64,000 nt of DNA, taken from contig CBDCCY010000002.1 in NCBI GenBank assembly GCA_965215155.1, forward strand, positions 559,698 to 623,697, written 5' to 3'. Under the pieces are notes generated by a model. It was not told the origin of the DNA. It saw only the letters and a list, made by a program, of their open reading frames with translations, and searched no databases. The translations under genes were made by a program, and so were the position numbers. The first letter of the stretch is position 1; each line of letters starts with the position of its first letter. This DNA is from Vicinamibacterales bacterium. GTDB taxonomy: Bacteria; Acidobacteriota; Vicinamibacteria; Vicinamibacterales; UBA8438. Shown here in pieces: positions 11,707-51,462 of the stretch.

Positions 11707-11825
11707 TATCCCCTCCTTGCCGGACGTGGCGCGCGCCTTCCCGCCGCGAGTTGCCACATATTCACATAAAGATCGCCATGCCGTCTCTCGCCGTCGCCCA
11801 CAAATCACACGCCTCTGAGATGCTA

Positions 11826-12983
11826 GTGTCCAACGCCTGAAGTTCTTGACCAGTAGAATCGGCTCGTGGTACGGTCGGCCCGGAAGCGAGGAGGGCCGTG
11901 CCGAACCATTACACACGAGAGGTCCCGGAGGTCTCGGACGCACAGCGCGAGGAACTGGAGGGTTGGCTGCGCCGGCGCAATACCGCGCAGGCTCTGGCCC
12001 TGAGGGCACGCATCGTGCTGCAGAGCGCCGCGGGACGGAGCGACCAGGTCGTGGCGCAGGCTCTGGGCACGACGCGGGCCACGGTCGGCAAGTGGCGGCG
12101 GCGGTTCCTGCGCAACGGCTGCGACGGCTTGCTGGACGAACCACGGCCGGGCGCGCCGCGCCGGGTGTCGGACGAGGACGTCGAACGGGTCGTGGTCCGG
12201 ACGCTGGAGACGACCCCACGGGGGGCGACGCATTGGAGCCGGGAGTCGATGGCCCGAGCCTGCGGGCTGAGCGCTTCGACCGTCGGCCGCGTGTGGCGCG
12301 CGTTCGCGCTCAAGCCCCATCGCAGCGAGACCTTCAAGCTGTCGCGAGACCCGTTGTTCATCGAGAAAGTGCGCGATATCGTGGGGCTGTACCTGCATCC
12401 GCCGGAGCGAGCGGTGGTGCTGTGTGTGGATGAGAAGTCGCAGATCCAGGCGTTGAACCGTACCCAGCCGGTGTTGCCGATGCGTCCGGGAGCACCGGAG
12501 CAGCGGACACACGACTATCGACGGCACGGCACGACCTCGTTGTTCGCGGCCCTGAACACCGCCACCGGCGAGGTGATCGGCAGGTGCTTTCGGAAGCACC
12601 GCTCGGTGGAGTTCAAGCGCTTCCTCGCCGTGATCGACAAGGCGGTGCCGCCCGACCTCGACATCCACCTGGTGCTGGACAACTACGGCACGCACAAGAC
12701 GGCGATGATCCACGACTGGCTGGCACGGCGTCCTCGGTATCACCTGCACTTCACGCCCACGAGCGCATCGTGGCTCAACCAGGTAGAGCGTTGGTTCGCC
12801 GAGATCACCCGGCAGCAGATCCGGCGTGGAACCCATCGCAGCACCCAAGCACTCGAGGCGGCGATCAAGGAGTACCTGGCGGTCTACAACGAAGACCCCA
12901 AGCCCTTCGTCTGGACGAAGACCGCCGAGCAGATCCTGGAATCCCTGAAGCGTTACTGCTCACGTATTTCTGACGGTGCACAC
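11826..12983 (+). mobile_element. IS630-family insertion sequence, copy 1 (intact), 1158 bp
   Basis: Ends GTGTCCAACGCC... and ...GGTGCACAC form imperfect inverted repeats. The element is flanked by TA at 11824-25 and 12984-85 inside a reconstructed CTAG target. A second copy lies at 31565..32720. Confidence 0.85.
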
Positions 12984-12986
12984 TAG
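11898..12986 (+). CDS. IS630-family DDE transposase
   Basis: ORF 11898..12986, 362 aa. N-terminal HTH followed by a DDE region ([32 protein letters not shown]). The stop TAG (12984-86) is supplied by the duplicated target TA plus the flanking G. Confidence 0.9.
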
Positions 12987-13249
12987 CAGGCCGTGGACGA
13001 AGGTCTTCCCGGCAGCAGGAGCGGCAGCCGTTGATGGAGCGCCGTAGCCCCTGTCCCCGGCGGATTCGGCGATCGACGCCTCAGGAGCGCGAATCGGATC
13101 GCGATCGGAGGCTCCAGAAGCGGCTCAGGGCGAGTTCGGCGGGCTTGCGGCTCGGTGGAATGAACCGGACACCGTCGGACACGTACCGGTAGCAGCGGGA
13201 GTCCCTGTTGCCCTCCCAGCCCGGGACCGGCAGTCGCAGCCTGCCGGAC

Positions 13250-15189
13250 TCACCGGGAGCCGGGCGCCAGCGACGTGAAGGCCCCCAGCGCGAAGACCCA
13301 GGGATAGAGCGCCTCGGAGTACCAGAGCTTCGCGAAGTACAGCCCGATGGGCTTCGGGGCGATCCGCCGCCCGCCGTCGGTGGCGTCGATCAACCAACGC
13401 ACACCGCCGGTGACGGCCGCGCCGAGACCGGGAACGGCGGCGGCACGCGGGAGGCGCCGGAGGGTCTCCAGCGCCGAGACCGCGACCGCCGTCTCCTCGA
13501 TGGACGGCGGCACGCCGAGCGCGCCACCCCAGCCCCCGTCGGTTCCCTGCGCGCCGACCAGCCAGCGGGCGGCGCGGACCTCGGTCGCGAGCGCCGCTTG
13601 GGCGTCGGGCAGGGCGGCGAGCCCCTCCAGCACCCGCGCCGTCCCGTAGACCGGATTGGCGTCGTCCGGGGCGCTCTGGTTGCCGAACCAGAGCGGAATC
13701 CAGGACCCGTCCGGCCGCTGCGCCCGCTCCAGGAACCGGATGGCCCGCCGCATGGCGCGCTCGGTGCGCAGCCGCAGAGCGGCCGGCAATGCCCCCCGCC
13801 ACGCGCTCCAGGCCCGTAGCGTGTGCGCGGTCAGGTCGGGGCTGCTGCGGTCGAACGGCAGCGCTCCCCAACCGCGGCAGAAGGTCGGGATGCCGCCGTC
13901 CGCGTTCTGCAGATCGAGGAGCCAGCCGATCCCGGCGCAGGCGGCCCGGCGGTGCTCCGCAGCGTCGGCGTCGAGCGCGTGGAGCGCGAGCAGCGCCCCC
14001 GGCGTGTCGTCGGCGTCCGGCACTCCCCCCGGCAGGTCGGTCCAGGCCCAGCCACCGGGGGCGGCGTCGGTGTAGACGTGTCGTTCCCGGTACTGCTGAT
14101 CGAGCAGCCAGCGGCTGAGTGCTTCGATTCCCCGGGGGCCGAGCCGAGCCCGCCAGTCCGGGCGACGAGACAACGCGTTGACGCTGAGCGTCGTAACCCA
14201 GGTGGCCAGGTTCGTATCGATGGGCCAGCTTCCGTCGGCGCGCGCCGAGCGCTCCAGGAACGCCACGCCGCGATCCACCACCGGATGGGCCGCTTCTCCG
14301 GCCGCCACGAGACTCATGACGACGAAGCTCGTGAGCGGCGTCGCCTCCAGGAAGCCTCCTCCCCGCGGCTGGATCGCCTCCAGCCGGCGCAGGGTCCGGC
14401 GGCGCGCCGCCCGGCGCACGAGGCGCGCCAGCGGGTTGCGCGTGGGGCGCTGCCGGTGACGCGCCTGCCCGATGGCGATCAGGGCCGGGAGGGCGTAGCT
14501 GACGACCGGAAGCCGCAACCAGCGGTAGAAGGCCGGCGGCACCGCGGCCAGCTCGTACGGGAGCTGCGGCACATGTCGCCATCCGCTGCCGATCCTGCCG
14601 CTCTCGTCCCGCGGCGCACGCCCCCCCCCCCTGCGTACCCTCGCAGCAACCCGGCCAGCGCGAGCACGGTGAGGATCGGGACCGAGAACGTGCGGTCCTT
14701 GCCGTAGCGCCGGCTGATCGTGCGCGCGAGCGGTTGCGGCTCCAGGCTGCCGGCGTCGCGCAGCATACGGTTGCGGACACGCTCGAGCGCCGCGCGGTGT
14801 GCAGCGTCGCCGTTGCCGGCGATGGTCAGCGCGGCCCAGACCAGGGCGGTCGTGCTGACGTTGCTCGGACTGTCGGTCGTATCGCCCCAGCCGCCATCCG
14901 CGCCCTGCGTCGCGACCAGCCACGCGAGGCCGTTGCGGACCAGCTCTTCGAGCGCCCGGCGGGGCCGGTCGCGGCCGACCAGTGCGAGCGCGATCGCGGC
15001 CGTGGCGGTCGCCAGCGCGGACGACGACAGCTCCCCGGTCCAGTGGCCGTCCGGCGTGCGGGCCCCGAGCGACCTCGCGATCAATCGCTCGAGCGTGTCG
15101 CGGCACTCCGCGGGCCGGACCGTCGCCGGGGGGTCCGTCGCGGGAGGAACGCTCGCCGCCGACGCCGGCGGATCCGGATTTCCGCTCAC
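13250..15189 (-). pseudogene. class II terpene cyclase (squalene-hopene-cyclase-like), frameshifted in a G11 run
   Basis: The N-terminal part is in the frame of ORF 14479..15798, starting at GTG 15189 (GTGA overlap with the upstream stop). The C-terminal part is in the frame of ORF 13250..15106. DxDDT-type motif DADDTPGALLAL and QW-like repeats. The frames switch at C11 (plus strand) 14621-14631. Confidence 0.75.
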
Positions 15190-16064
15190 AGGCTCAGGTG
15201 CCCCAGCGCGAGCAGGGCATAGAAGGTGTACTCGCAGTCCTGCACGTCGTCGCCCCAGTTGCCGTAGAAGCCCCCGGTGTTGGTCCAGAGACTGTCGACG
15301 AAGTCGAGGCAGGACTCCTTGAGCGGCTCGAGCGGCGTGTGCGCGCCGGCGAGCGCGTGGAGCGCGGTGGCGGTGGAGAGCAGGTCGGGGATGGGCGTCG
15401 CCGCCGACGCACAGAACCCGCCCCCCGGCAGGTGACGAGCACGGAGCCACGCGACGGCCCGCGGATCGGCGGGACGGGCAAGGCGCCGCTGGACGGTCAA
15501 CGCGGCCGCGGTCGGGGGCGTCAGGCCGTCCGCCGAGCCCGGCCGATTGCCGTAGCCGCCGTCCGCCGCGCGCAGCGCGGCCAGGGAATCGGCAAGCCGA
15601 TCGGGCTCGGCGAGCGGGACGCCCAGGTCCTCGTAGGCCCCGAGGGCCAGGAAGGAACCGTACGCGGTCCCGTGTTCCGACCCGCCGGTCGGGCTGTAGC
15701 CGCCGTCCGGCGTGCGATAGGCCTCGAGCCGTTCGACGAGCGCGCCCGCCGGCGCCTCGCCCGCGGCACCGATGTCGGCCCAGCAGCGGGCGAGGCACGC
15801 GGTGTGCACGAAGTCGAGCTCGGCCGGGTCGTCGTGGCGCTCCAGGTAGCGCCGCACCCCTGCGGACGGCAAGGTGCGCCGCAGTGCCGTCAGCGCCTCG
15901 AGTCCGAAGACGGTGTAGTAGAGGTCGCTCGCGCCGCCGCGATCCTGGAAGCCGCCGTCCGGATTCAGCCGTGCCGCAAGGAACTCCGCCGTCAGGTCCG
16001 CCGCGTCACCGAGCAGCGTCGGCGACAGCCTGGCCACCTGCAGCATTTCGAGCCTCAAACTCAC
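15186..16064 (-). CDS. prenyltransferase/squalene-oxidase-repeat (alpha/alpha-toroid) protein
   Basis: ORF 15186..16064. Repeated PDGGF/ADGGY/LPGGGF/NTGGFYG motifs with aromatic spacing typical of the toroid repeat. The start is uncertain, since the ORF overlaps the upstream gene end by 59 nt. Confidence 0.6.
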   Translation of the reverse strand: MSLRLEMLQVARLSPTLLGDAADLTAEFLAARLNPDGGFQDRGGASDLYYTVFGLEALTALRRTLPSAGVRRYLERHDDPAELDFVHTACLARCWADIGAAGEAPAGALVERLEAYRTPDGGYSPTGGSEHGTAYGSFLALGAYEDLGVPLAEPDRLADSLAALRAADGGYGNRPGSADGLTPPTAAALTVQRRLARPADPRAVAWLRARHLPGGGFCASAATPIPDLLSTATALHALAGAHTPLEPLKESCLDFVDSLWTNTGGFYGNWGDDVQDCEYTFYALLALGHLSL

Positions 16065-17775
16065 TGCACCAGCCCTGGATCTCGACGCTGAAGATCTTGC
16101 CCACGACCCGGCGCAGCAGTCCCTTGAGGCTGGGGTTGGTCAGGCCGGGCAGACAGCGGATCGCCTCCTCCTTGTAGCCTTCCATCAGGCGGCGGCTGCG
16201 GCCGGCGGCGTCGAAGCGCTCGAGCAGCTCGCGCACCTCGTTGGAGCGGCCGCCGACGGCCTGCTCGCGACGCCACGCGGCCTCGAGCACCGACCGCGCC
16301 TCGGGCTCGGACTTCGCCTGCTCGTAGCCGACGGCGAGCGGCAGGGAGGGGCGCAGGGCCGCCACGTCGTCCGGCGCGTCGGCGGACGGCTCGAAGTCGT
16401 CGAGGTCGTCCCGGATCTGATAGGCGATGCCCAGCGCGTCGCTGTAGGCCCGCAGCTTGTCGAACACCTCCGGCTCGGCCCGGGCGCAGGCCGCGCCGAG
16501 CTCGAGCGCGACGCCGAACGCGGGCGCGGTCTTCTGCCGGAAGATCTGCAGCACCTGCTGCGAGCCGAGAGGCCGCGGGCGGCGCGCCCAGGCGAGCTCC
16601 TCGCCCTGTCCGAGACAGAGGGTGCGGTGCCCGCGGGCCGCGATGGCCATCATCTCGGCGCGGGTCTCCGGCGCGAAGTCGCACTCCGCAAGCAGCCGGT
16701 AGCCCTCGCCCACGAGGAGATCGCCCACGTTCAGCGCCGCCGGGACTCCGTGCGAGGCATGCAGCGTCGGCTCGCCGTAGCGGAGCGCGTCGCCGTCCTC
16801 GATGTCGTCGTGCACCAGGGAAGCCTTGTGGAAGCACTCCACCGCCACCGCCACCTTCCTGAGCGCGTCCGGAGGCGACGTGTGCGGGTCGTCCTGAAGG
16901 GCCTGATGCACGCAGACCGTGAGGAACGGACGCCAGCGCTTGCCGGCGCGGGTCAGCTCGCCGCGGGCCAGCGTCTCCGTCTCGCCCTCGGGCGGGCCGC
17001 CGAACAGCTCGTCGAGCGCCGCCGGGGCGAACCAGCTCTCGACGTCCTTGCGCAGCGCGTCGAGATCGAGCCGCCGGGTCCGGTCGTCGCTCGTGGCGTG
17101 GATGAAGTCCCAGACCCATTCGACGTCGACGCCGGTGTCCTTGCAGTCGTCCTGCAGCAGCGGGATCGCCACGCCGGGGATGGCCGCCGCCTCCATGTAG
17201 GGGAAAGCGCGCTCGAGCACCGAGAGGCAGCTCACGCCGACGATCGCCTCGATCTTGCCGGTCTGGATGAGCGCCATCACCAGCGCCGAGCCCTCCGCGA
17301 CGAGCACCGCGTAGCCGAGCTTCTCGGCTTCCTCCTGCAGGTCCTGGATGGTGCACAGGCCGCACTGCTTGCAGAGCAGGCCGAACTCCTCGAACGGGGC
17401 GGGGCAGCGATCCTCCACCCGCAGGCACTTCGGCAGCAGCAGCAGGCGCCGGTCGTAGGGGACGGTGGCGAGATGCTCGCGCCACGTCTCGTTGCCGAGC
17501 AGCACGCCGAGGTAGTCGAGGTACTTGGCGTCGATGCCGTGCGCCCGCGCGATCTCCTCGGAGCGGGTGCGCAGCTCGTCCAGCACCAGCGGCGGCGTGA
17601 TCTCGCTCTGCCGCGCCGCCACGTAGGCCCGGACCTGCTGCAGCATCACCTCGCGCTCCGTCCGGGTCTGCGGGATGTTGTCCTGCGGCGGCCGCATGGC
17701 CGTCGGCGGCACGGCGCGAGGGAGGGTTACGACCGGCAGTGGGTAACTCACGGGCCCTTCCGTTGATGTCGGCAT
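16006..17775 (-). CDS. DUF116-like Cys-rich domain fused to a polyprenyl (trans-isoprenyl) diphosphate synthase
   Basis: ORF 16006..17775. The N-terminal half has LLLLPKCLRVEDRCPAPFEEFGLLCKQCGLCTI and VGVSCLSVLE (DUF116 pattern). The C-terminal half has both Asp-rich motifs, LVHDDIEDGD and QIRDDLDDF. The start codon choice is uncertain. Confidence 0.75.
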   Translation of the reverse strand: MPTSTEGPVSYPLPVVTLPRAVPPTAMRPPQDNIPQTRTEREVMLQQVRAYVAARQSEITPPLVLDELRTRSEEIARAHGIDAKYLDYLGVLLGNETWREHLATVPYDRRLLLLPKCLRVEDRCPAPFEEFGLLCKQCGLCTIQDLQEEAEKLGYAVLVAEGSALVMALIQTGKIEAIVGVSCLSVLERAFPYMEAAAIPGVAIPLLQDDCKDTGVDVEWVWDFIHATSDDRTRRLDLDALRKDVESWFAPAALDELFGGPPEGETETLARGELTRAGKRWRPFLTVCVHQALQDDPHTSPPDALRKVAVAVECFHKASLVHDDIEDGDALRYGEPTLHASHGVPAALNVGDLLVGEGYRLLAECDFAPETRAEMMAIAARGHRTLCLGQGEELAWARRPRPLGSQQVLQIFRQKTAPAFGVALELGAACARAEPEVFDKLRAYSDALGIAYQIRDDLDDFEPSADAPDDVAALRPSLPLAVGYEQAKSEPEARSVLEAAWRREQAVGGRSNEVRELLERFDAAGRSRRLMEGYKEEAIRCLPGLTNPSLKGLLRRVVGKIFSVEIQGWCSEFEARNAAGGQAVADAAR

Positions 17776-21220: not shown

Positions 21221-21445
21221 GGTCGGAGTCCTCCCTACCCGACGTATCGGTCGATCAGCGCTCGCTCGATACCCCGTACGGCAAGACCCTCAACTTTCTT
21301 GTCGTGCACCCAGGAGGCGGACGGGGAAGAGGCAGAAGCATGGGAGGATCGAGGGATCGCGGACAATCAGATGGGGGCACGGACGGAGAACAGGCCGGAG
21401 GCGGAGAGCACGGACGACACGATGCGCAGCAGGGCAGCGACGGTG

Positions 21446-21775
21446 AGAGTGTGATCCAACCTGTCGTCTGATCACAACAAGGACCGAGGCGAACTTACAC
21501 CGATGATGCCGCAGTAAGGGTGTAAGGAGGACAGGCGGCCGAACTTACACTTCCAGTCACACCTGAACTTACACCCGGCAACCAGCCAAGTCGTTTCCTA
21601 TCAACAGATTCCCACATCACAGACCCACCCCCACGTGCAGACAAAAGGGTCGGGTGGGAGTAGGGGAGCGACCACGCGGAAACCTGGCGGTTTCCGGCCC
21701 CCGCCGGTGCTCCTCCGTCACACCTGCGGGGTCGCGGTCGCTCCCCTTGAAATTGTCCCTCCAGGAAGGGTGAGA
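21446..21775 (+). repeat. repeat X, uninterrupted copy (X-A): hairpin, AACTTACAC iterons and an 84-nt multi-hairpin block
   Basis: Matches 26696-26848 plus 29678-29852 at most positions by eye. Contains TGTGATC-N13-GATCACA (21450-21476), AACTTACAC at 21492, 21542 and 21566, and an inverted GTGTAAG at 21520. Confidence 0.8.
21663..21746 (+). other. 84-nt structured block inside X-A (outer 11-bp stem enclosing two hairpins); function unknown
   Basis: GGGGAGCGACC...GGTCGCTCCCC outer stem. Inner GGAAACC-tggc-GGTTTCC hairpin. Inner CCCCGC...GCGGGG hairpin. The paralogous block is 29744-29827, where the third stem is a perfect 12 bp. Confidence 0.4.
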
Positions 21776-22321
21776 ACCTGCCGTCTCCGCCGGCCGGCCG
21801 GCTCGCGTCGCTCGCCAGCGTCGGGCCATGAACGCTGCCCCGCCTGCGGCGCTCTCCGGCAGCGCGTGCAGGTCGGGCGGAGCCGGCCGGCGGCTTCCAC
21901 CAGAGGCGGGTAGCTACGGGACGGCCGGCGTGTCAACGCGCTTCGCACGTTCTCCGCTGCGCTTCGACCCTGTCGGGTGACACACCGTCCGCCCCTCCGC
22001 TCAGACAGCCGTTGTGGGCCTTGCGGCCCGGCCTGGACGGGAACCGTCCCGTCGTCCCACTCGGCTCGCCCGCGGATGGACCCCCGATGCGGAAAAATGC
22101 GGGCGGCGAGATTTTTCTTTGCCCGTGCAGGTCGCTTCATAGAGTGCGGAAAGGTGCTCATCCGGTCCTGTCCAGTCTCAGCAGGTCGGAAGGCGCCCAG
22201 AAGGGTCTAATCCGTGCAAAGTGCTGCATTGCATGGGTTTGCGCTGTTTGTGGTACGTTGTTCTCCGAACCGCGGGGCGTGATATCGCCGCGCAATCCCG
22301 CCATCTCAAGGAGGGCTGAAG

Positions 22322-22570
22322 ATGACCACGAACCGAGACTTCACCCGCCGGCGTGCGAGCGTCGGAAACCCCCTGCCCAGGCTGCTCACCCTGCGCGACG
22401 TGACCGAGCTGACGGCCCTGTCCCGCTCGGCCGTCTACGCGCTGATGAGCGAGTCCAGGTTCCCGAAGCCGCTCCGCGTCGGCAGCCGCGCCGTCCGGTG
22501 GGTCGAGCACGAGGTGCTCGACTTCATCGCCACCCGCCCCCGCGCCGGCTCGGAGCGGCCCACTCGGTAA
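22322..22570 (+). CDS. AlpA-family HTH regulator/excisionase
   Basis: ORF 22322..22570 preceded by AAGGAGGG. LLTLRDVTELTALSRSAVYALMSESRFPKPLRVGSRAVRWVEHEVLDFI matches the AlpA/prophage CP4-57 regulator pattern. Confidence 0.8.
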   Translation: MTTNRDFTRRRASVGNPLPRLLTLRDVTELTALSRSAVYALMSESRFPKPLRVGSRAVRWVEHEVLDFIATRPRAGSERPTR

Positions 22571-22575
22571 CGGCC

Positions 22576-24477
22576 ATGCTCGACCTGCTCGACCGCCTGG
22601 AGGGCGTCAGGGAGTCGGGTGCGGGCTGGACCGCGCGATGCCCGGCGCATGCCGACCGCCGGGCATCGCTCGCGGTCGGCCGCGGCGACGACGGCCGCTG
22701 GCTCCTGAAGTGCCACGCCGGCTGCGCGTTCGGCGCCGTCGTCGGCGCGCTCGGCATCGACGCCCGCGACCTCTTCCCCTCGAACGGACACCGCCACCCG
22801 CCCGCGCGGCGGGAGGCGGCCGTCTACGACTACGACGGCGTGTTCGAGGTGGTCCGCTACGAGCCGAAGGACTTCCGGCAGCGGCGGCCGGACGGGCGAG
22901 GCGGCTACCTGTGGAACCTCGACGGCATCACGCCGCGGCTCTATCGCCTGAACGACCTGGCCGGCCGCGATGCGGCCGTCGTGGTCGAGGGCGAGAAGGA
23001 CGTGGACCGGCTGTGGTCGCTCGACCTGCCGGCGACCTGCAACGCGGGCGGAGCCGGCCAGTGGAGGTCCACGCATGCCGAGCAGCTCAAGGTTGCCGGC
23101 GTGCGGTCGGTGGTCGTCGTTCCCGATGCCGACGACGCGGGCCGGAGACATGGTCAGGCGGTTGCGCGAGCGTGCGCAGCGGCCGGACTGCGGGCGCGGA
23201 TCGCCGCGCTGCCCGACGGACCCAAGGACATCTGCGCGTACCTTGACGACGGTCACGACAAGCGCGAGCTGGCGGAGGTGATCGCCGCTGCCGAGTCGTA
23301 CGACGGGGCCGCCGACCTGCCGGCCGGGGTCGTGCGGTTGAGTGACGCCGATGTCGAGGGTACGGCGGCCGAGGGACCGCCGGCCGTCGCGCGGCTGATC
23401 GCCCACGCGGGGCGGGTCACGTTGCTGCACGCGCGGGAGAAGGCCGGCAAGAGCACGCTGATCGGCGCCGCGGTGGCCGCCGTCACCCGCGGGCGGTCGT
23501 TCCTGGGCATGCCCACCGTTGCGGGCGACGTGCTGTGGGTCGGCGAGGAGGCGGCCTCGGATGTCAAGGCGCGGCTGTTCCAGTGGGACGCGGACCTGGA
23601 ACGGGTGTACTTCGTCGGCCGGCCGAGCCGGGACCTGGAGCACGAGGCGTCGCTGCGACGGCTGGTCGAGCGGCTGCGGCCGGTGTGGGTCGTCATCGAC
23701 ACCTGGTCGCACTACCTCCAGGTCCATCGCGTGAAGGACACGGCCGGCCCCGGCGAGCAGGGGCTGCTGATCGGCGAGGTCGTCAGTCTGGCCCGCGAGT
23801 CCGGGTCGGCGTTCGCCGTCTCGCACCACAACCGGAAGAACCCCAGCGCCAGCGCCGAGTCCGGCGACGCGGAGGGCGAGTACCGGGACTCGACGGCGAT
23901 CGGCGCGGCCGTGGACATGATCGTGTCGTTGAGCCGGGCGAAGATGCCGCGGGCGCGGCGCCTCACGCCGTCCGGCCGCTGGCCCGAGGAGCCGCTGACC
24001 GTCGTCCTCGAGCCGGGCGTCGGCTACGAGCTGGCGCCGGACCTGGAGGAGGACGAACAGGCCCGTGCGGACGGCAAGCCGCCGGCCCGCCCGCTCCCGG
24101 AACGCGCGCTGCTGCACCTGCTCCGGTGCGATCCGCTGGCCCGGCCTCATGCGAGCACCCTGGCCGACGCGCTCGATTGCAGCGGACGGCGGTACCAGGA
24201 CCTGCGCGCGGCGCTCGATGCGCTGCTCGACGACGGGCTCGTCGACCACGCCCAGCGCCCTGGCGCGACGAAGCAGCGGGACCGGGGCTACGCACTGACC
24301 GCCGAAGGCCGCGAGCGGGCCGAGGCTCTCCGCGACCAGTCGATTTCCGCGATTTCCACCAAGGGAAACGGGGCGGAAACGCTCGGGAACACGCCGGGAA
24401 ATCCAACTCGATTTCCATTTCCGCGATTTCCCCCCCAGGGGGTGGGCGGAAATGGAAATGGAAATCGAACTGCTTGA
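22576..24477 (+). CDS. bifunctional primase (zinc-binding + Toprim) / RecA-like AAA (RepA/AAA_25-type) replication protein
   Basis: Frame of ORF 22012..24477, ATG 22576, 5 nt after the alpA stop. CPAHADRRASL...KCHAGC; Toprim VVVEGEKDVD...VVPDADDAGRRHG; P-loop-like AREKAGKSTL. The last about 45 codons run through the iteron array. Confidence 0.75.
   Translation: MLDLLDRLEGVRESGAGWTARCPAHADRRASLAVGRGDDGRWLLKCHAGCAFGAVVGALGIDARDLFPSNGHRHPPARREAAVYDYDGVFEVVRYEPKDFRQRRPDGRGGYLWNLDGITPRLYRLNDLAGRDAAVVVEGEKDVDRLWSLDLPATCNAGGAGQWRSTHAEQLKVAGVRSVVVVPDADDAGRRHGQAVARACAAAGLRARIAALPDGPKDICAYLDDGHDKRELAEVIAAAESYDGAADLPAGVVRLSDADVEGTAAEGPPAVARLIAHAGRVTLLHAREKAGKSTLIGAAVAAVTRGRSFLGMPTVAGDVLWVGEEAASDVKARLFQWDADLERVYFVGRPSRDLEHEASLRRLVERLRPVWVVIDTWSHYLQVHRVKDTAGPGEQGLLIGEVVSLARESGSAFAVSHHNRKNPSASAESGDAEGEYRDSTAIGAAVDMIVSLSRAKMPRARRLTPSGRWPEEPLTVVLEPGVGYELAPDLEEDEQARADGKPPARPLPERALLHLLRCDPLARPHASTLADALDCSGRRYQDLRAALDALLDDGLVDHAQRPGATKQRDRGYALTAEGRERAEALRDQSISAISTKGNGAETLGNTPGNPTRFPFPRFPPQGVGGNGNGNRTA
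24335..24470. repeat. iteron-like array of GATTTCC/GGAAAT(C) motifs ending in a 59-bp imperfect palindrome (24409-24467) with a C7/G5 centre
   Basis: CGATTTCCATTTCCGCGATTTCCCCCCCAGGGGGTGGGCGGAAATGGAAATGGAAATCG, with at least 10 motif copies across the interval. Lies between the convergent primase and integrase genes. Confidence 0.75.
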
Positions 24478-24536
24478 GGGTCGATCTCTGGGCGGAGTCG
24501 GGGGCCACGGACCCCACGTCACGGAATCGGAATCCG

Positions 24537-25784
24537 TCACCGGCGCAGGGGGATGACCTGCCCCCGCTCCTCACCGAGATAGGCGCCCCAATCGTCCATG
24601 AGGCGTCGGCGGCGCGCGAACAGGTCGGACCGCGCGTAGGCCGCCTCGACCTGATTCCGCACCTTGTGGGCCAGCGCCGCCTCGACGACCTCACGCGGGT
24701 GGTCGGTCTCTTCGGCCGCCCAGTCCCGGAAGCTGGACCTGAAGCCATGCGGCACCGCCGCGATGCCCAGGTCCCGGATGAGCTTCGAGACCGCGGCGTC
24801 ATCGAGCGCCTTCCCGCGGACGCTCGGAAAGACCAGCCCGGCGAACTCGGGCCGGGTCGCGACGCCGCGGAGCTGCTCCGACTCGCGCAGGACCCCGGCC
24901 GCCCGGCCGCACAGCGGCACCCGGTGCTCGCGTTGCGCCTTCATCCGCGCCGCCGGAACCGTCCACACCCGCGCGACAAGGTCGACCTCGTCCCACGTCG
25001 CCCCCCGCGCCTCGCCGGACCTCGCGGCCGTCAACACGAGAAACTCGAAGGCCAGCTTCGTCCCGAGCCACGCATCCGAGCGCTGAACGGCCGCAACCGC
25101 GGCGGCGACCTCGCCGTGCGGCAGCGCCGCCCGGTGCTGCACGAGCACGGGACGCTTCGGCAGCGCCGCCGTGACCGCGTCGCCGGCTGGATTGTCGCTG
25201 CGGTAGCCCTGCGCGATGGCCCACCGCATGACCGTGCCGATGCGATGGCGCACCGACCGCGCCATCGCGTGCTTGCGCGTCCAGATGGGCAGCAGGACCG
25301 TCATGACGTCGGCCGTCGTCACCTGGTCGACGCTCTTGCCGCCGAGGTGCGGAAGCACATGGTCGCGCAGGCTCGCCCGCCACTGCTTCGGGGTCTTGCC
25401 GGCCCGCCACGCCTCCCCGTGGATGGCGATCACCTGCTCGACCGCCTCCTCGAACGTCGGGATCCCCTCGGAGCGGCGCCGGTCCGCGAGCGGGTCTCCG
25501 CCCTCGCGGGCGGCCTTGCGGTTGGCGAGCGCCTTCTCGCGGGCCTCGGCCAACGACACCAGCGCGTAGCTGCCGAGACCGAGCGCGCGGGACCGCCCGC
25601 GGATGACCAGCCGTTGCACCCAGCGGCGCGCCCCGGACGGGTCGACGTGCAGATAGAGGCCATTCCCGTCAGCGTAGCGGCCCGCCTCGGCGACCGAACG
25701 GCAGAAGGCGGCGGAGAGCGCCTTGTCGGGATGGCGGCCCCTGCGCTTGGTGGCTCGGGGTTTCCTGGGCAGGTCCATCGTCAT
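24537..25784 (-). CDS. int: P4-type tyrosine integrase (DUF4102-like N-terminus + phage integrase catalytic domain)
   Basis: ORF 24537..25784. GNGLYLHVDPSGARRWVQRLVIRGR (arm-binding type N-terminus). Catalytic LTAARSGEARGATWDEVDL, HGFRSSFRDWAAE and VEAAYARSD. Confidence 0.88.
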   Translation of the reverse strand: MTMDLPRKPRATKRRGRHPDKALSAAFCRSVAEAGRYADGNGLYLHVDPSGARRWVQRLVIRGRSRALGLGSYALVSLAEAREKALANRKAAREGGDPLADRRRSEGIPTFEEAVEQVIAIHGEAWRAGKTPKQWRASLRDHVLPHLGGKSVDQVTTADVMTVLLPIWTRKHAMARSVRHRIGTVMRWAIAQGYRSDNPAGDAVTAALPKRPVLVQHRAALPHGEVAAAVAAVQRSDAWLGTKLAFEFLVLTAARSGEARGATWDEVDLVARVWTVPAARMKAQREHRVPLCGRAAGVLRESEQLRGVATRPEFAGLVFPSVRGKALDDAAVSKLIRDLGIAAVPHGFRSSFRDWAAEETDHPREVVEAALAHKVRNQVEAAYARSDLFARRRRLMDDWGAYLGEERGQVIPLRR

Positions 25785-25916
25785 CTATCCCATTCCCAAT
25801 TCTCTCGCGGAATATAGCGAAAGTGTGGAGACGGGTCAAGACGACGGAGCGGGAGTAGTGGCCTTTTACTACGGTATTCAGTGCGTATTTCGCAGCACGG
25901 CGCGGAACGGCGCTGG

Positions 25917-26117
25917 ATGGCGAAAGTCGGCTTTCGGTCCTCGTTCCGGGACTGGGCGGCCGAGAAGACCGACCATCCGCGCGAGGTCATCGAGGCGGCG
26001 CTGGCGCACGCGGTCGGCAACAAGGTCGAGGCGGCGTACGCAAGGTCGGACCTGTTCGAGCGGCGGCGGACTCTGATGAACGACTGGGCGGCCTACGTCG
26101 ATCGGGGTCGGCCGTGA
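25917..26117 (+). pseudogene. C-terminal remnant of a second, related integrase gene in inverted orientation
   Basis: Part of ORF 25881..26117. KVGFRSSFRDWAAEKTDHPREVIEAALAHAVGNKVEAAYARSDLFERRRTLMNDWAAYV parallels the last about 65 residues of the intact integrase. Diverged at DNA level (roughly four fifths identical by eye). Confidence 0.75.
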
Positions 26118-26147
26118 TGGCGATCAGCGAGTTGGCCACGACCGCCG

Positions 26148-26295
26148 CGGTTCGATTTCCATTTCCATTTCCGCCCACCCCCCAGGGGGGAAATCGTGGA
26201 AATGGAAATCGAGTTGCGCTTCCCGTCGAGTTCCGGTGCGCTTCCGGCCTGTTTCCATTGGGGAAATCGAGGAAATCGCCTGGCGAGGCGAACCA
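26148..26295. repeat. inverted second copy of the iteron array/palindrome (palindrome 26153-26211)
   Basis: GTTCGATTTCCATTTCCATTTCCGCCCACCCCCCAGGGGGGAAATCGTGGAAATGGAAATCGAGTT is the near-exact reverse complement of 24404-24470. Further GGAAATCG/GTTTCC motifs continue to about 26295. Confidence 0.75.
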
Positions 26296-26473: not shown

Positions 26474-26530
26474 GCGTTTACCGTTTACGCGTTTCCACCC
26501 CCCCCTGTGGAAACGGTAAACGCGTAAACG
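26474..26530. repeat. second palindrome built from GTTTAC(C/G) units around a C-run
   Basis: GCGTTTACCGTTTACGCGTTTCCACCCCCCCCTGTGGAAACGGTAAACGCGTAAACGG. Same architecture as the GGAAAT palindrome (repeat arms, homopolymer centre). Confidence 0.6.
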
Positions 26531-26695: not shown

Positions 26696-26848
26696 CGAGA
26701 GTGTGATCCACTCCGCGGCCCGATCACAGCCAGGACCGAGGCGAACTTACACCGATGGTGCCGCAGTAAGGGTGTAAGGAGGATAGGCGGCCGAACTTAC
26801 ACCCCCAGTCACACCTCAACTTACACTCGATAACCAGCCAAGTCCTTT
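26696..26848 (+). repeat. repeat X, copy B, left part (ends at the ISKra4-like insertion)
   Basis: Collinear with 21446-21597 of X-A, including the hairpin (26702-26728) and three AACTTACAC iterons. Terminates in AAGTCCTTT, the duplicated target. Confidence 0.8.
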
Positions 26849-26915
26849 GGGTGCGGCTCTTCTTCGTCGGCGGTCCAGAGATGTCCAAGGGTTGCTGCGA
26901 GCAGCAGGGCAAGAG

Positions 26916-28529
26916 CTACTTGACCCGTCGAAGACGGGGGGAGGAGGGCGGTGGGGACGGCTCGGTGACGGGTGGTGCTATCCCGTCAGCATAACGTTGG
27001 GCGTGGTTCCGTTCGTACTCGCGCGCCTCGTGGAAGTCCCAGTAGGCATCGAAGTCGCCGCTGGCTCGTAACGCTCGCAGCTTCAGGACCGCCTCGGCGC
27101 CGACCAGCCGCCAGCGGGCGCCGGTCAACTCCATCCGGTCGCGGACCAGGTGCCGGCACGCCCCCTCGATCACCCCCGTGGCGATGGGATAGCCCGCCGC
27201 GAGGTAGCGGTCGTAGTGTAGATACGGCCCATACTTCAGCAGGTAGTCGGCGCACGTGTCGACCGGCTTGCGGAGGTCGGGCGGCAGGCGGGCGACGGTG
27301 GCCGCTCGGCGCATTGCCGCCGCCACCCACCGGGCCTTGCCTTCGAGAATGCGTCGCACCCGCGTCCAAGCCCAGTATTCCCGCTCGAGGCTCTCCTCGC
27401 GATGGAACACCTGTGCCGCCTTCCAGACGTACTCGACCACGTGGATGATGTCGAGCACCACCGTGACGTCGACGCCGTACGCGGCGGCGCCCGCCTCCAC
27501 GAGGTCGAGCTGCATCTCGGCGCCGTCGACGAGCACGACCCAGCTCTTGACGCGCTCGGGGTCCCGGCGGTCCGCTTCCAGCAGCGCCTCCGCGACCACC
27601 TCCGCCGGCTCCCGTTCGAGGCTCGCCCAGACCCGTTTCGCCACCGGGCGAGGTCGCACGAGCGGGGGCCTGGACTTCTTCGTCCGGGTCCTGGCCACCG
27701 GCGAGCGGGGCATCAGGCTCTGCAGGAACTCCTCCGGGCTCCGCACGAACGGCGCGACCGTGTAGACGGCGGCCACCGTCGCCATGCGCTTCGCGTGCTT
27801 CTTCTCACCCGGCTGGAGACGCGGGAACCAGGCGAGCTGCTCGCGTTGCCGCCGGCGCCGCTCCGCCGCCCGCCGCGTCGCCTCGCGCAGGTCCTCGCGG
27901 TGCAGCACCACGCCCTTGCCGTCGAACGTGAGCACCAGAACCGACCCCTCCGGCGACGGCTCGCCCGCCGCCGCGCGGCGCGCCTCGTAGAAGGCGTCGA
28001 AGTCCTCCGCCGCGCGAGCTGCCAACTGTTCCGCCTGCCGCTTCGGCACCTCCGCTCCGGTATGGCGAGACAGATCGAACAGCGCTTCGTCGAACGACCG
28101 CGACGCGGCCGCCTCCGCCACCCGCCGGCGCACCTCGAGCGAGTACCGCTCCGGCGGCAGGTTGAGCGACGCATCCAGCGGATGCAGACTCTCGTGACCC
28201 GCACGCGCGTAGCCCACGCGCTCGACTTCCACCGTGCCGAAGGTCGTCTCCAGGTGTCGTTCGTGCACGCGCCGTTCCCCGCGCTCGACCCCATCGGCCC
28301 CCGCGACCGGACCGGCCGCCTCTCCCGGGCTGCGCTGGTCGAGGTGCCCCTGCAGGAGCTTGCGCAGCAACTCCTGGCCCCGCCGATTCAGCTCCCGTTC
28401 CAGGTCGCTCTCACTCATCTGCTGCGCTTCGCGCGACGAGAGGTAGGCTTTGGCATCCGCGTATACGGCGTCCGCCGCCGCATACGGCGCCGGGTCGGAG
28501 GGAGCGCCGCGGTCGGCGACGACTCGCAT
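26916..28529 (-). CDS. ISKra4-family transposase
   Basis: ORF 26916..28529, 537 aa. C-terminal pattern GYPIATGVIEGACRHLVRDRMELTGARWRLVGAEAVLKLRALRASGDFDAYWDFH is typical of this family. The start is 3 nt after the DUF4338 stop. Confidence 0.8.
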   Translation of the reverse strand: MRVVADRGAPSDPAPYAAADAVYADAKAYLSSREAQQMSESDLERELNRRGQELLRKLLQGHLDQRSPGEAAGPVAGADGVERGERRVHERHLETTFGTVEVERVGYARAGHESLHPLDASLNLPPERYSLEVRRRVAEAAASRSFDEALFDLSRHTGAEVPKRQAEQLAARAAEDFDAFYEARRAAAGEPSPEGSVLVLTFDGKGVVLHREDLREATRRAAERRRRQREQLAWFPRLQPGEKKHAKRMATVAAVYTVAPFVRSPEEFLQSLMPRSPVARTRTKKSRPPLVRPRPVAKRVWASLEREPAEVVAEALLEADRRDPERVKSWVVLVDGAEMQLDLVEAGAAAYGVDVTVVLDIIHVVEYVWKAAQVFHREESLEREYWAWTRVRRILEGKARWVAAAMRRAATVARLPPDLRKPVDTCADYLLKYGPYLHYDRYLAAGYPIATGVIEGACRHLVRDRMELTGARWRLVGAEAVLKLRALRASGDFDAYWDFHEAREYERNHAQRYADGIAPPVTEPSPPPSSPRLRRVK

Positions 28530-28532
28530 CGC

Positions 28533-29423
28533 TCAAGGCTCCCGCAGCCGCCGCTGCGCATCCCGAACCAGAGGATAGACCAGGACCGTCTTGGGCGCCG
28601 CGCCGGCACGACGGCCGTGCCGGTCCATGCGCCCGCGACCGCTCGTCGCGCCCAACGCGACCCAGTTGGCGGCACGGTAGCAACCCCCGTGGTGGCGGCG
28701 CGCGTCCACCAGCGTCTCCACCAGCCACGGCTCGAGGTGGTACCGGCGCGCCCAGTCCGCCACCAACCGACCGAGGCCACGCGCCAACACCGCGCTGGCC
28801 AGGTTCTTCACCCCGACCCACGGCAGCAACAGGAAGCGGCTGTTGTTGACCACCCGCTGCAGATTCCGCGCCCGCGTCCCATCGTCCCAGCCCACCCAGC
28901 GGTCCCGCACCGCCATGCGCCACGCCGGGCTCGAGAACTGCAGGCAGCCCACCACCGCGCGGACCGGCTTCGACGCATACACCAGATACCGCAGGTGCGC
29001 GCCGAACGGAACCGTGTGCCCCAGGTAGTGGTAGCGACCCACCAGCTCCCGGAACAGCAGCCGCTGCGCGGGCTCCTGCACCAACTCGACCTCCAGCGGC
29101 TCGATGTCGCGGACGCTCCCGACGAGCGAACGTCCCGGCTCCCCCACCGCCGTCCGGGGAACGCGGGTCACCGAACCGACCACGCGCCCCCGCCGCTTGT
29201 CCGGCAGCATCAGCGCCCCCTCCGCGTCGAGCCGTTCCAGGAACTCCCGGCACTCCCGCGCCTTCAGCCTCCCGTTCGGACGCCGCCACCGCAACAGCTC
29301 GCACACCGTGCGCGCCAGCTCCATCCGGCTCAAGCCCGAGCAATCCCGCACGACCTCGCGCATCAGCGTCACCTCGCGGTCGCTGAACGCACGTCCCGAG
29401 AAACTCGTCGTCGCCACGGCCAT
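28533..29423 (-). CDS. DUF4338 domain protein (same domain as Druantia DruA), IS passenger/accessory gene
   Basis: Frame of ORF 28533..29525, likely start ATG 29423 (MAVATTSFSGRAFSDREV). Motifs GRYHYLGHTVPFGAHLRYLV, VVNNSRFLLLPWVGVKNLAS and GGCYRAANWVALGATSGRGR. Confidence 0.75.
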   Translation of the reverse strand: MAVATTSFSGRAFSDREVTLMREVVRDCSGLSRMELARTVCELLRWRRPNGRLKARECREFLERLDAEGALMLPDKRRGRVVGSVTRVPRTAVGEPGRSLVGSVRDIEPLEVELVQEPAQRLLFRELVGRYHYLGHTVPFGAHLRYLVYASKPVRAVVGCLQFSSPAWRMAVRDRWVGWDDGTRARNLQRVVNNSRFLLLPWVGVKNLASAVLARGLGRLVADWARRYHLEPWLVETLVDARRHHGGCYRAANWVALGATSGRGRMDRHGRRAGAAPKTVLVYPLVRDAQRRLREP

Positions 29424-29668
29424 CGCGGGAAGGCGTCTCCCTTCCCACCACACCGTAGCAAGCGCCGCGCGAAATGTCCAGGGGCGCCGGAGAAACAGGC
29501 CACAGCGCCTCAGCGCCGTGGTCACCGGCTCCGGTCGGCTGCTCGAAGGGCCCGGTGGGGACGCTGGTCCGGTGCTGTCCCCGCCAGAATGCCCCCAACT
29601 GAGAGGGGGCGCGGAGATAAACCACTATCAGTCAATGAGATAGCTCTCTACGGAAAAGAGCCGCACCC

Positions 29669-29852
29669 AAGTCCTTTCATATCAACAGATTCCCACATCA
29701 CAAACCCGCCCCCACGTACAGACAAAAGGGTCGGGGGGGAGTAGGGGAGCGACCACGCGGAAACCTGCCGGTTTCCGGCCCCCGCAGGTGTTCCTCCGTC
29801 ACACCTGCGGGGTCGCGGTCGCTCCCCTGGAATTGTCCCTCCGGGAAGGGGG
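29669..29852 (+). repeat. repeat X, copy B, right part (resumes after the IS)
   Basis: Collinear with 21589-21775 of X-A, including the 84-nt hairpin block (29744-29827). Diverges from X-A after GTCCCTCC(A/G)GGAAGGG. Confidence 0.8.
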
Positions 29853-29918
29853 GACAGGCGCTTGCAGCGCCTGCACGGGCCGGCTGCCATGCTCTGCCCG
29901 TGTCCGAAGGCACCCTGA

Positions 29919-30225
29919 CGGAAGGCGGCGCTCGTCGAGGAGGTGGCCGACGCCGCCGGCCTCACGAAGAAGCGCGCCGAGATCATCGTCGACACCCTGT
30001 TCGACAGCATCGCCGAGGCGCTCCGCCACGGGGAGAGGTCGAAGTCCGCGGCTTCGGCAGTTTCCGTCTCCGGCGGCGCGCGCCGCGCCGGGGCCGCAAC
30101 CCCAGGACGGCGACCGGGTGGACGTGCCGTCGAAGCACGTCGCCTACTTCACGTCCGGCAAGGAGCTGAAGGAGCTGATCAACCGGGACCCGGCCCTGCC
30201 GGTGCCGCCGCCGTTGTCCGAGTAG
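29919..30225 (+). pseudogene. IHF/HU-family DNA-binding protein gene with no start codon and two 1-bp frameshifts
   Basis: Three frames join to read RKAALVEEVADAAGLTKKRAEIIVDTLFDSIAEALRHGER / VEVRGFGSFRLRRRAPRRGRNPRT / GDRVDVPSKHVAYFTSGKELKELIN. Each shift is a missing G in a short G run (near 30034 and near 30108). An in-frame TGA lies immediately upstream. Confidence 0.75.
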
Positions 30226-30282: not shown

Positions 30283-30395
30283 AACGCGCGTGGACAGCCT
30301 CTGCGAGGGGCGTGTCAAGACTCGATCAAGCGCCGTTACGTAACGCTACTCAAATGAACGCGCGTGGATAGCCTCTGCGAGCGGCGTGTCAAGAC
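30283..30395 (+). repeat. two 39-bp direct repeats (37/39 identical), 74-bp period, in the intergenic region upstream of the GT2 gene
   Basis: AACGCGCGTGGA(C/T)AGCCTCTGCGAG(G/C)GGCGTGTCAAGAC at 30283-30321 and 30357-30395. Each carries TTGACA on the minus strand. Confidence 0.7.
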
Positions 30396-31561
30396 GCTGC
30401 GGTCTTCCGCGGGATCTGTTAGGACGGTGACGGAAACTACGTTGCCACGTTCGCGGGCGCGAGCCCCGGAATCACGGGCCTGGGGCGTCACGCCAGTTGG
30501 CAAAGTTGTATCGATCGCTGTCCTTACGGTATCCTTTCCGATACAGCCCGCGCGTGCCGCGGCCGCTCTCTCGCTACCGAGCGAGAACGCTTGAGCGGGG
30601 GGCGGGGCCGTTGTGGGCAACGCGAATCATGGTTTCTCCACGTCATCCCGTCGAACCCGACGTTCGCGCCGGAGACCCGGAAATCCGTCCGAGCGGCCTC
30701 GCGACGCCGTTCCCATCGGTGTCGGTCATTCTCCCGGCCCGCGACGCCGAGGAGAGCATCGGGAAGGCGCTCGACTCGGTGTTGGCTCAGGACTACAACG
30801 GTTCGGTGGAGGTGATCGTTGCCGACGGGTCCGACAACACCGCCACGTCGGACCTGGTTCGGCGGCTGTATCCGACGGTGACACTGATTCCCAATCCGCA
30901 ACGTGTCATCGGGTATGGCATCCAGGCGGCGTTGCGGGTGGCGACCGGAGAGATCGTCGCACGCTGCGACGCCCATACGACCTGGCCGCCTGGATACCTG
31001 CACCGGGCGGTAGAGACGCTGCAGAGAACCGGGGCGGCCAACGTCGGCGGCCGACAACGACCGGTCGGCACCACGTTCTTCGAGCGCGCGGTGGCGCTGG
31101 CGATGACCACGCCGCTGGGGACGGGGCCTGTTCGCTACCGGCTGGGGGGCCTCGAGGGCCCCGTCGAGACCGTCTACCTCGGCGTGTACCGACGTGACAG
31201 GCTGGCCGCGGTGGGCAGTTACGCCCCCGACATGGTCCGGGGCGAGGACTATGATCTCAATACCCGGCTGCGGATGCACGGGGAAACGGTGTGGTTCGAT
31301 CCCGAGCTCGTGGTCGACTATCGGCCGCGCGGCACCCTGCGGGACCTCGTCCGACAATATTTTGGCAACGGCCGTTGGAAGCGGGTGGCGTTGCTACGAC
31401 AACCGACGGCGCTGCTGCCCCGGCACGGCGGCGGCTTGCTGCTGCCCCGGCACGGCGCCGGCCCGCTGCTGCTGCTTGGGTTGGCGGCCTCCGCGGTCCT
31501 CTTCTGGGCCGGCGCTCCTGGGGCGGCGGCGTTGCCGCTCACGTATGTAGTCACCTTGGCC

Positions 31562-32648: not shown

Positions 32649-32720
32649 GGCCCTCCTCGCTTCCGGGCCGACCGTACCACGAGCCGATTCTACTGGTCAA
32701 AAACTTCAGGCGTTGGACAC
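31565..32720 (-). mobile_element. IS630-family insertion sequence, copy 2, 1156 bp, inverted relative to copy 1
   Basis: Same termini as copy 1. TA at 31563-64 and 32721-22. The reconstructed target is GCC-CTAG-TGT inside the GT2 gene. Differs from copy 1 by a 2-bp deletion and at least one substitution. Confidence 0.85.
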
Positions 32721-32877
32721 TAGTGTCTCTGGTGGTCGGCGTTCGTCGCCGTTCGTGCGCCGCGTTGCTGCTCCCGCTGGTCTTGGCGACGATGCATCTG
32801 AGCTGGGCGGTCGGTTTCTTTACCCCGTTGGGGCGCCGGGGTCGCGGCCGGCGACCGACGCGGTCGGCGGAACCGCG

Positions 32878-47847: not shown

Positions 47848-47941
47848 CGTGATCCTCCGCGTCCCTCCCGGATCCCGGGTGGACTGACCGGGATGGCCCC
47901 GACGTGGACGCCGACGCGCGCCCGACGCTTCGCCGGCCCCG

Positions 47942-48109
47942 CCTCGCCCGCCAATCGTCGCCTGGCGGCTCCGCCTGGCGCCCAGCCAGGCCTGCAGGAG
48001 TCCGCGCCGCCTTGCGCCGCAGACTCCTCGCCCGCCAATCGTCGCCTGGCGGCTCCGCCTGGCGCCCAGCCAGGCCTGCAGGAGTCCGCGCCGCCTTGCG
48101 CCGCAGACT
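47942..48109 (+). repeat. perfect tandem duplication of an 84-bp REP-like unit
   Basis: 47942-48025 equals 48026-48109 base for base. The unit contains GCCTGGC...GCCAGGC and AGGAGTCCGCGCCGCCTTGCGCCGCAGACTCCT hairpins. Intergenic. Confidence 0.9.
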
Positions 48110-51308: not shown

Positions 51309-51462
51309 CTCCACAGCGCACGCTACGCGCCTGCTGCACGATGCCGGTCCCACTGCTCGGTTCGGGGAGGCGGGATTGCGCGGGCGGAGAAGCGGCGACG
51401 GAAGGAAGCTGCTACGGCTCCGAGGCGCTGCGAAGGTCGACGACCCGCCCGGTGCGGTGGAG

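Follow-up and report, generated by a model that had tools for sequence, protein, structure and literature searches.

A repeated module with a strand-specific, covarying fold in small integrative elements of Vicinamibacterales

Two copies of X at the locus

The window analysed here is a stretch of 64,000 nt from a Vicinamibacterales bacterium (GCA_965215155.1, contig CBDCCY010000002.1, positions 559,698-623,697, forward strand), and our subject is a module of about 330 bp, called X, that occurs in it twice. The complete copy, X-A (21446-21771), lies upstream of alpA (22322-22570, plus strand), a gene of the excisionase/transcription regulator family, which is followed by a primase-helicase gene (22576-24477, plus strand) and, convergently, by a gene for a P4-type tyrosine integrase with an Arm-DNA-bind_3 domain (24537-25784, minus strand). 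The primase-helicase has a zinc-finger-like N terminus, Toprim and RepA/DnaB-like AAA_25 domains and a C-terminal winged-helix-like domain (a weak match). The second copy, X-B, is split by an insertion into a left part with the palindrome and repeats (26697-26848) and a right part with the structured element (29678-29851, minus strand), and it is followed by a decayed HU/IHF-like gene (29900-30225, plus strand). We tentatively read X as a regulatory module that would combine a new structured small RNA with GTGTRAS sites arrayed for binding by a recombination protein.

The original prediction, made from the letters alone, described two direct repeats of about 330 bp, one upstream of alpA/primase and the other upstream of a decayed HU/IHF gene. 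Both points hold: domain annotation agrees with the placement and, with the insertion removed, about 326 bp of X-A and X-B align at about 91% identity, the similarity ending sharply on both sides. The parts it named within each copy are also present where it placed them, namely the palindrome TGTGATC-N13-GATCACA (21450-21476), whose half-sites belong to the GTGTRAS/TGTGAT motif family, three AACTTACAC 9-mers at 21492, 21542 and 21566 (spacing 50 and 24 bp) with an inverted GTGTAAG at 21520, and an 84-nt multi-hairpin block (21663-21746), which proved to be a three-way junction that folds far better than shuffled sequence. The G+C content of X-A is 59.5%, that of the window 70.7%. Since 12 of the 14 GTGTRAS matches across the 64-kb window fall within the two X copies, the cluster of repeats is not a product of chance.

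The insertion in X-B (26849-29668, minus strand) is 2820 bp long, is bounded by inverted ends of 13 bp, GGGTGCGGCTCTT, duplicates a 9-bp target, AAGTCCTTT, and encodes proteins of 537 aa (no Pfam match) and 330 aa (DruA/DUF4338); it may be an undescribed transposable element. It adjoins the A+T-richer patch of X-B, the target duplication ending at 29677 and an IHF-like motif lying at 29680-29692.

A covarying fold next to a repeat array

The 84-nt block is part of a structured element of about 120 nt, M2 (21658-21778, minus strand), which consists of a three-way junction of helices P1, P3 and P2 and, as a conserved addition to the predicted structure, a hairpin P0 (about 21756-21771). P1 and P3 are 11-13 bp long, P2 is GGAAACC-N3/4-GGTTTCC, and the P3 loop, GUGACGGAGGAAC when read on the minus strand, is invariant. 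A further hairpin, H4 (CCCACCC...GGGTGGG; 21624-21658, minus strand), lies between an A+T-richer patch and the junction, and a hairpin of varying sequence is present at this position in all X types.

A pattern derived from the block was used to scan public metagenomes and returned 16 true copies and 13 chance matches, bringing the set to 17-18 distinct variants. Covariation was computed on a 17-sequence alignment with explicit structure, its variants coming from genomes and metagenomes. Paired cells make up 91.6% of this alignment, and both sides have changed in 17 of the 39 pairs. The covariation score is 0.267, against 0.126 in shuffles (0 of 500 reaching the observed score), and sliding the partners by 1-3 columns lowers pairing to 36-52%. 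RNAalifold recovered the same helices de novo from six full-length X copies; on a raw MAFFT alignment of 8 blocks it returned a different fold with the 3' strand of P1 misaligned, and the 17-sequence alignment was used instead. Compensatory changes among homologs from other genomes support the hairpin and the three-way junction.

The fold also has a preferred strand. Relative to shuffled sequence, the 84-nt block folds with a z-score of -5.2 in X-A and -7.3 in X-B; z-scores in the minus orientation are -5.2, -6.3 and -7.8, against -3.4, -3.4 and -4.8 in the other. The reverse complement is the more stable in 17 of 17 variants, by a mean of 7.7 kcal/mol, and there are 26 G.U cells against 9 A.C cells, most of the latter being alignment slips by inspection. 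The folding strand is the minus strand of the window; the original prediction had the structure right but wrote it on the opposite strand, which folds less well. The fold and its preference for one strand require a single-stranded molecule.

In the libraries searched, neither an RNA family nor an annotated sequence matched X. Rfam 15, including C4/CI RNA and int-alpA, gave zero matches at E<=10 against 21300-22400, and on two of the other loci compared (L083 and L003) it gave chance-level matches only, with none above chance on either strand of X. A search for a known RNA family with Infernal and Rfam thus found none at the gathering threshold, and the only Rfam match in the whole window is a tRNA-Phe (9135-9207). 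A covariance model of our alignment finds only the two X copies in the window (X-B at 29739-29858, 118 bits), no copy in 68 loci with more distant primase relatives, and one diverged copy in a second element of L001, where the repeat word of that element, GTGTGATC, stands at the P3 tip. IMG/VR (2.9 million viral contigs), scanned with two patterns, returned nothing or chance palindromes, which the covariance model rejects, and blastn found no X-like sequence in 50,697 phage records and 72,556 plasmids.

Other readings of the invariant GGAGG loop failed by eye: a sigma-54 promoter has no correctly spaced GG-N10-GC, and a small open reading frame has a Shine-Dalgarno-like word with no start codon after it. 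An RNA guide matching the attachment (att) core of its own element, in the manner of IS110 bridge RNAs, was also rejected, a 3x6 comparison showing no diagonal excess; the longest loop/att-core matches (6-8 nt, and one 11-nt run of G+C only) are found everywhere in it.

Beside M2 lies the repeat array, M1 (21492-21574, minus strand). The predicted 9-mers are part of a wider family of GTGTRAS words on the minus strand, in which GTGTAAG, GTGTGAC and GTGTAAG stand in tandem at a 12-bp phase (21544-21574), with an inverted copy at 21520-21526 and a further direct copy at 21494-21500, again in the minus-strand reading. One more word sits at the tip of the long hairpin P3 (21717-21723). In all, M1 comprises about seven GTGTRAS-type sites, eight with the P3-tip copy, and an IHF-like bend site. 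This motif, TATCAACAGATTC (21599-21611, plus strand), agrees at 12 of 13 positions with the IHF consensus WATCAANNNNTTR, and it sits in a 40-bp patch of 47.5% G+C within the 70.7% G+C window. Read along the folded strand, every X has the same order: junction, H4, lower-G+C patch, three tandem GTGTRAS words at a 12-bp phase, an inverted copy, a further direct copy and, finally, a palindrome of the same half-sites. The repeat word drifts between elements, appearing as GTGTAAG, GTGTGAC, TGTAAK or GTGTGATC.

Three different elements have a TGTAAST word 14-22 bp inside their left crossover, oriented alike and with A+T-rich DNA after it; from our own base-composition estimate, the probability of a chance match in so short a stretch is about 1 in 1000 per element. 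Since the word stands next to true att crossovers, its binder is likely to be a recombination protein, and judging from these positions the GTGTRAS sites are most likely bound by the integrase arm domain or AlpA. The way X type follows alpA and integrase, set out below, agrees with this. Co-variation between word and candidate binder across four elements was ambiguous, the wing of the primase winged helix correlating only anecdotally.

Beyond X, after a variable gap, homology between the units resumes in a GGCGTGTCAA...GGGTGACAC segment (21910-21990 and 30283-30401). This "D4-like" segment, TAGCTACGGG...GGCGTGTCAAC...GGGTGACAC at 21910-21990 with copies after X-B at 30283-30321 and 30357-30395, is always on the P0 side of X and is akin to the right end of an IS110-family element. 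In L095 and L099 the P0 loop is the exact insertion point of an IS110-family element, and in L095 (3241-4795), L099 and L096 (3780-4460) the right end of such elements has a P0-like copy and D4-like-related sequence. Between elements with X copies of only 78% identity, the 400 bp upstream of alpA (21920-22322) are conserved to more than 95%; this stretch has several hairpins and a GAAAAAT...ATTTTTC stem with a T run, and alpA may have a long structured leader.

Nested elements and a candidate origin

Close relatives of the primase come only from Vicinamibacterales (Acidobacteriota) genomes, and one metagenome-assembled genome (CBDCCO010000007) has at least seven copies of the primase element at 99% identity. 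Comparison of copies with different flanks delimits the element. At L012 4040-4057 identity rises from about 75% to 100%, and homology to a second, interrupted integrase gene ends at that same point (residue 354), residues 347-403 resuming to the right of the element. Since the jump in identity and the integrase break coincide, the element is about 5.3 kb long and inserted at an HGFR-coding motif of the second integrase gene, with the core GCGAAAGTCGGCTTTCGG (right core at 25920-25937). Copies lie in the window (21310-25937), in L012 (4045-9374) and in L002-L006 and L011. X-A lies 826 bp inside the left end (attL). The window copy and its counterpart in L005 are without the left 700 bp or so, lost to an ISKra4-like remnant with the break at 21310. 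In this left arm, at L003 4440-4530, an 8-9-bp GGACCGG microsatellite varies in repeat number from one element copy to another, and several rearrangement breakpoints fall within it.

To the right of the element stand the remains of its target: the C-terminal codons of the second integrase (25929-26111, plus strand) and an inverted 3' end of a second primase gene with GATTTCC repeats (26147-26283). Further right is a palindrome, GCGTTTACCGTTTACGCGTTTCCAC...GTGGAAACGGTAAACGCGTAAACGG (26474-26530), a fragment of a third, L009-type primase 3' end/origin array. X-B lies beyond the element's right end, in this older material with the displaced integrase C terminus and the two different primase 3'-end fragments. 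X-A is upstream of alpA in all seven copies of the metagenome-assembled genome; an intact X-B is downstream in four, there is none in L004 and L012, and L006 has a different, 78%-identical X that belongs to another element. Because complete, 99%-identical copies in a related genome carry X-A without X-B, this comparison assigns X-A and X-B to two different, nested elements, X-B to the older, degraded one. The older element cannot be taken as an L001-type copy with one deletion, the stretch to the left of X-B being a patchwork of two different primase 3' ends.

Another arrangement is seen in L001, from a related genome, where a primase element of 89-90% identity with direct repeats CTGCTCAAG on its flanks splits a gene for a TonB-dependent receptor and has X inverted relative to alpA, 170-780 bp inside attL. 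The receptor gene (L001 1993-15220) is in three pieces, with two different integrase-bearing insertions at conserved coding motifs (..LVNG.. with direct repeat TGGTCAACGGC and ..LLK.. with direct repeat CTGCTCAAG).

The last 140 bp of the primase gene (24335-24470) contain six exact GATTTCC/GGAAATC words and close variants, arranged as two dyad-symmetric clusters around C7AG5 within the last codons. The window has 19 matches to these words against 3.6 expected, five of them in the inverted remnant (26154-26277). Equivalent arrays with lineage-specific words occur in L001/L007, in L009/L010/L112 (GTTTCC/GTTTAC) and in L111, whose primase is 57% identical. Relatives of 33-40% identity from other phyla have unrelated dense repeat words at +1640 to +1930 from the primase start (at +2425 in L110), and an array at the primase 3' end is present in most relatives checked, down to 33% identity. 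Loci with equivalent 3'-end arrays, across several phyla, include L021, L024, L026, L032, L043, L058, L061, L063, L110 and L111. By its position and conservation, this array is most likely the replication origin.

The order of int, alpA, a fused pri-rep gene and an ori-like array after rep, found in the host element and its relatives, is that of the replication module of phage-inducible chromosomal islands (PICIs) and Staphylococcus aureus pathogenicity islands, a likeness that concerns 24335-24470 and not X. In PICIs the pri-rep-ori layout, with an ori of two iteron sets, has been shown experimentally (PMC6092414). The 5.3-kb element differs in being far smaller and in having no repressor gene or helper known; in gene count the minimalist PICMI islands (PMC10803314) are closer. 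In L111, genes for a terminase-like protein, capsid, protease and portal lie upstream of alpA-primase-integrase. Given this capsid-bearing relative, the family looks satellite-like and the 5.3-kb element, which has no packaging genes of its own, looks like a minimal form.

The original prediction had proposed, by analogy with P4, that X is an iteron-type origin plus a crr-like partner site for the adjacent primase-helicase. The likeness is real in that each system combines an integrase with a protein of the AlpA family (Vis in P4) and with a primase-helicase fusion ending in a DNA-binding domain, and that short repeated non-coding words form two repeat-bearing regions a few kb apart in the window. 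The helicase here, of the RepA/DnaB-like AAA_25 type, differs from that of P4 alpha. The proposal is not supported, because the primase gene itself has a stronger array at its 3' end, in the window as in most relatives checked, because X is absent from the 68% (L110) and 57% (L111) primase relatives, because X is inverted relative to alpA-primase in L001/L007/L008, and because X type tracks alpA (96% versus 61%) and integrase, not primase. Thus L009, with alpA at 96%, integrase at 92-98% and primase at 77% identity, has the window-type X, and L001/L007, with about 90% primase identity, have another type; it is the words of the 3'-end array that go with the primase lineage. Unlike ori and crr of P4, moreover, the two X copies belong to different elements rather than acting in cis in one replicon, and L004 and L012 hold X-A only. 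X does occur wherever the primase is at least 75% identical and the sequence reaches far enough upstream. The 40-bp patch of 47.5% G+C beside the repeats is at most suggestive of an A+T-rich unwinding stretch. On this comparison X is probably not the replication origin.

Elsewhere in the window, two nearly identical, inverted IS630-like (DDE_3) copies (11817-12986 and 31562-32729) bracket 18.6 kb that include the whole X region, and the left one interrupts a GAF-PAS-histidine kinase-receiver-Trans_reg_C gene next to the tRNA-Phe. A terpenoid cluster (squalene-hopene-cyclase-like, prenyltransferase and polyprenyl synthetase/DUF116; 13125-17775) lies between this copy and the element region. Further along are an 84-bp tandem duplication in a coding region (47931-48098) and two tandem paralogous gene families (51461-57250) with periods of about 0.83 kb and 1.1 kb and 62-78% identity.

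What the module may do

X is not bound to one neighbourhood. In L001/L007/L008 it is turned round as a whole with respect to alpA, its internal order kept, and different cargo follows it: alpA, HU (L005, L105) or type I restriction-modification genes (L091, L096). In L083 and L106 it has a hybrid histidine-kinase gene on one side and, on the other, a sigma-54 activator gene reduced to a truncated 3' half, and the block is nearly identical in the two while the flanking genes diverge. At least five contexts have X and no detectable primase in the 2-11 kb around it (the second element of L001, L091/L096, L083/L106 and L104).

Since the unit inverts, its neighbours vary, and it takes a position divergent from alpA, HU or hsdM, it resembles an autonomous small-RNA gene with operator or arm-type sites. 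In our preferred, though tentative, reading, X would be a self-contained, non-coding module controlling a family of small phage-satellite-like elements of Vicinamibacterales, which integrate, replicate themselves and encode AlpA, a primase-helicase and a P4-type integrase. X-A would serve the 5.3-kb element, which sits within an integrase gene belonging to an older, degraded element, and X-B is the copy of the latter. M2 is under selection for base pairing on the minus strand and is most likely a small structured RNA or RNA domain, which we infer to be transcribed leftwards, divergently from alpA (from HU at X-B and from hsdM elsewhere). The M1 sites would be bound by the integrase arm domain or AlpA, and M1 and M2 together may form the regulatory switch of the element, in the place where phages and PICIs keep a repressor and P4 its CI RNA. 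The immunity factor of P4 is an RNA, the CI RNA (Rfam C4 family), and not a protein. Like it, the int-alpA RNA motif, reportedly described by Weinberg in 2017, is a structured non-coding RNA of the region that controls integrase and AlpA in satellites and genomic islands. X resembles both as a structured element at the integrase/AlpA control region, but differs in that a hairpin and three-way junction are fused to a repeat array, and its RNA nature is putative. A structured non-coding RNA had been among the alternatives of the original prediction; covariation makes it the leading reading for the block, although consensus scans of both strands recognised no promoter or terminator, and acidobacterial promoters may not fit such scans.

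This absence is one of several points that count against an RNA switch. Aligning the sequence upstream of P0 across the variants gave no conserved box. A folded single DNA strand would yield the same covariation and G.T asymmetry. The GGGAGCG/CGCTCCC and AAACC/GGTTT stems are invariant, which is unusual conservation and also fits recognition by a protein. With every variant drawn from a single narrow clade, few independent substitutions underlie the covariation. Finally, the repeat words of L001 and L007 differ by one base (GTGTGAC versus TGTAAK) although the two share the same AlpA and have integrase arm domains of 98% identity.

The strongest rival, itself rather unlikely, is a single-stranded DNA replication signal. 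In this scenario the unwound minus strand would fold into the junction and be recognised by the primase domain as a priming or helicase-loading site, and the repeats and A+T-richer patch would make up a secondary, crr-like site for an initiator. The oriV of IncQ plasmids is laid out as iterons, an A+T-rich stretch and single-strand initiation (ssi) sites. X offers the same order of repeats, 47.5% G+C patch and G+C-rich hairpins, and the ssiA/ssiB hairpins of RSF1010 act single-stranded. The AAA_25 helicase domain is of the RSF1010 RepA type, RSF1010 too having a RepA-type helicase and a dedicated primase; X occurs at every sufficiently sequenced locus of the closer primases; and P2 (GGAAACC/GGTTTCC) resembles the GTTTCC origin words of L009/L111. 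But P2 stays constant while the origin words change (GATTTCC versus GTTTCC), and only one strand of X is structured. In addition, the family-wide origin array lies elsewhere, the 68% and 57% relatives lack X, its type is independent of the primase, and the primase association is not exclusive, as the contigs without detectable primase show.

An attP-type site, with arm sites, a bend site and a core, is also unlikely. Some members would then integrate into resident X copies, and the stems would be a dyad-symmetric core or a copy of a structured target, as with tRNA genes. The three tandem phased repeats, inverted copy and IHF-like site do resemble the arms of a lambda-type attP, the integrase has a separate arm-binding domain, the same word flanks true crossovers, and HU/IHF-like genes stand beside X in X-B, L005 and L105. 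In L091 the left half of one X type is joined to the block of another from GGGAGCGACCC on, followed by the restriction-modification island, which in L096 follows a complete element-type X; L105 and L087 have the block only, with unrelated sequence up to it; and the P3 loop never varies, which is what an overlap region would show. The attachment-site arms suggested in the original prediction keep some plausibility, though less than before: the repeat motif does adjoin crossovers, but X itself is internal wherever ends can be defined, in either orientation and 170-830 bp from crossovers, which lie at the HGFR motif of an integrase gene and at two TonB-receptor gene motifs. Between L091 and L105 the junction point shifts by at least 8 nt, dyad symmetry is absent there, no reciprocal junction or product was found among these loci, and the P1 arms, 60 bp apart, co-vary with strand-asymmetric mismatches; double-stranded sites predict neither, and attP has no strand-specific three-way junction.

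Two further readings are highly improbable. X could be a packaging or transfer signal (cos/pac or oriT) for mobilisation by a helper phage or conjugative element. Repeats together with a bend site recall cosB, and a minimal element lacking packaging genes, with a relative such as L111 that has terminase-like, capsid, protease and portal genes, would suit this idea; nothing like X was found, however, in the 2.9 million viral contigs, 50,697 phage records and 72,556 plasmids, and the three-way junction on one strand is left unexplained. X could equally be a folded-DNA recombination site, strand-specific like attC of integrons, at which P4-type integrases would dock cargo modules (alpA-primase-integrase, HU, type I restriction-modification) serially. 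The L091 hybrid, the block-only loci L105/L087, cargo always right after P0 and a G.T-tolerant structure are compatible with this and no proof of it; if it were true, there would be an integron-like system outside integrons, with the X-bounded units of the window and of L002-L006 as its cassettes. The original prediction also considered the subterminal region of the truncated ISKra4-like element, whose gene abuts X-A on the left; this, like the corresponding region of another transposon, is excluded, as seven loci of the related genome have X-A unchanged behind left flanks that differ or extend further, X recurs in more than 15 other loci without that insertion sequence, the 21310 break is specific to this locus and L005, and X has neither a constant transposase linkage nor terminal inverted repeats.

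Acidobacteria are a dominant soil phylum, and their mobile elements are almost unstudied. Here a very small integrative replicon of about 5.3 kb has risen to seven or more copies within a single genome, targeting conserved coding motifs that include those of other integrase genes, and its likely origin can be placed at the 3' end of the primase gene. If X acts as a folded DNA signal, it would bear on how minimal replicons recruit a fused primase-helicase. If instead the RNA switch that we tentatively prefer is correct, these elements would be the second satellite, after P4 with its CI RNA, to run a lifestyle decision by RNA rather than by a repressor protein.

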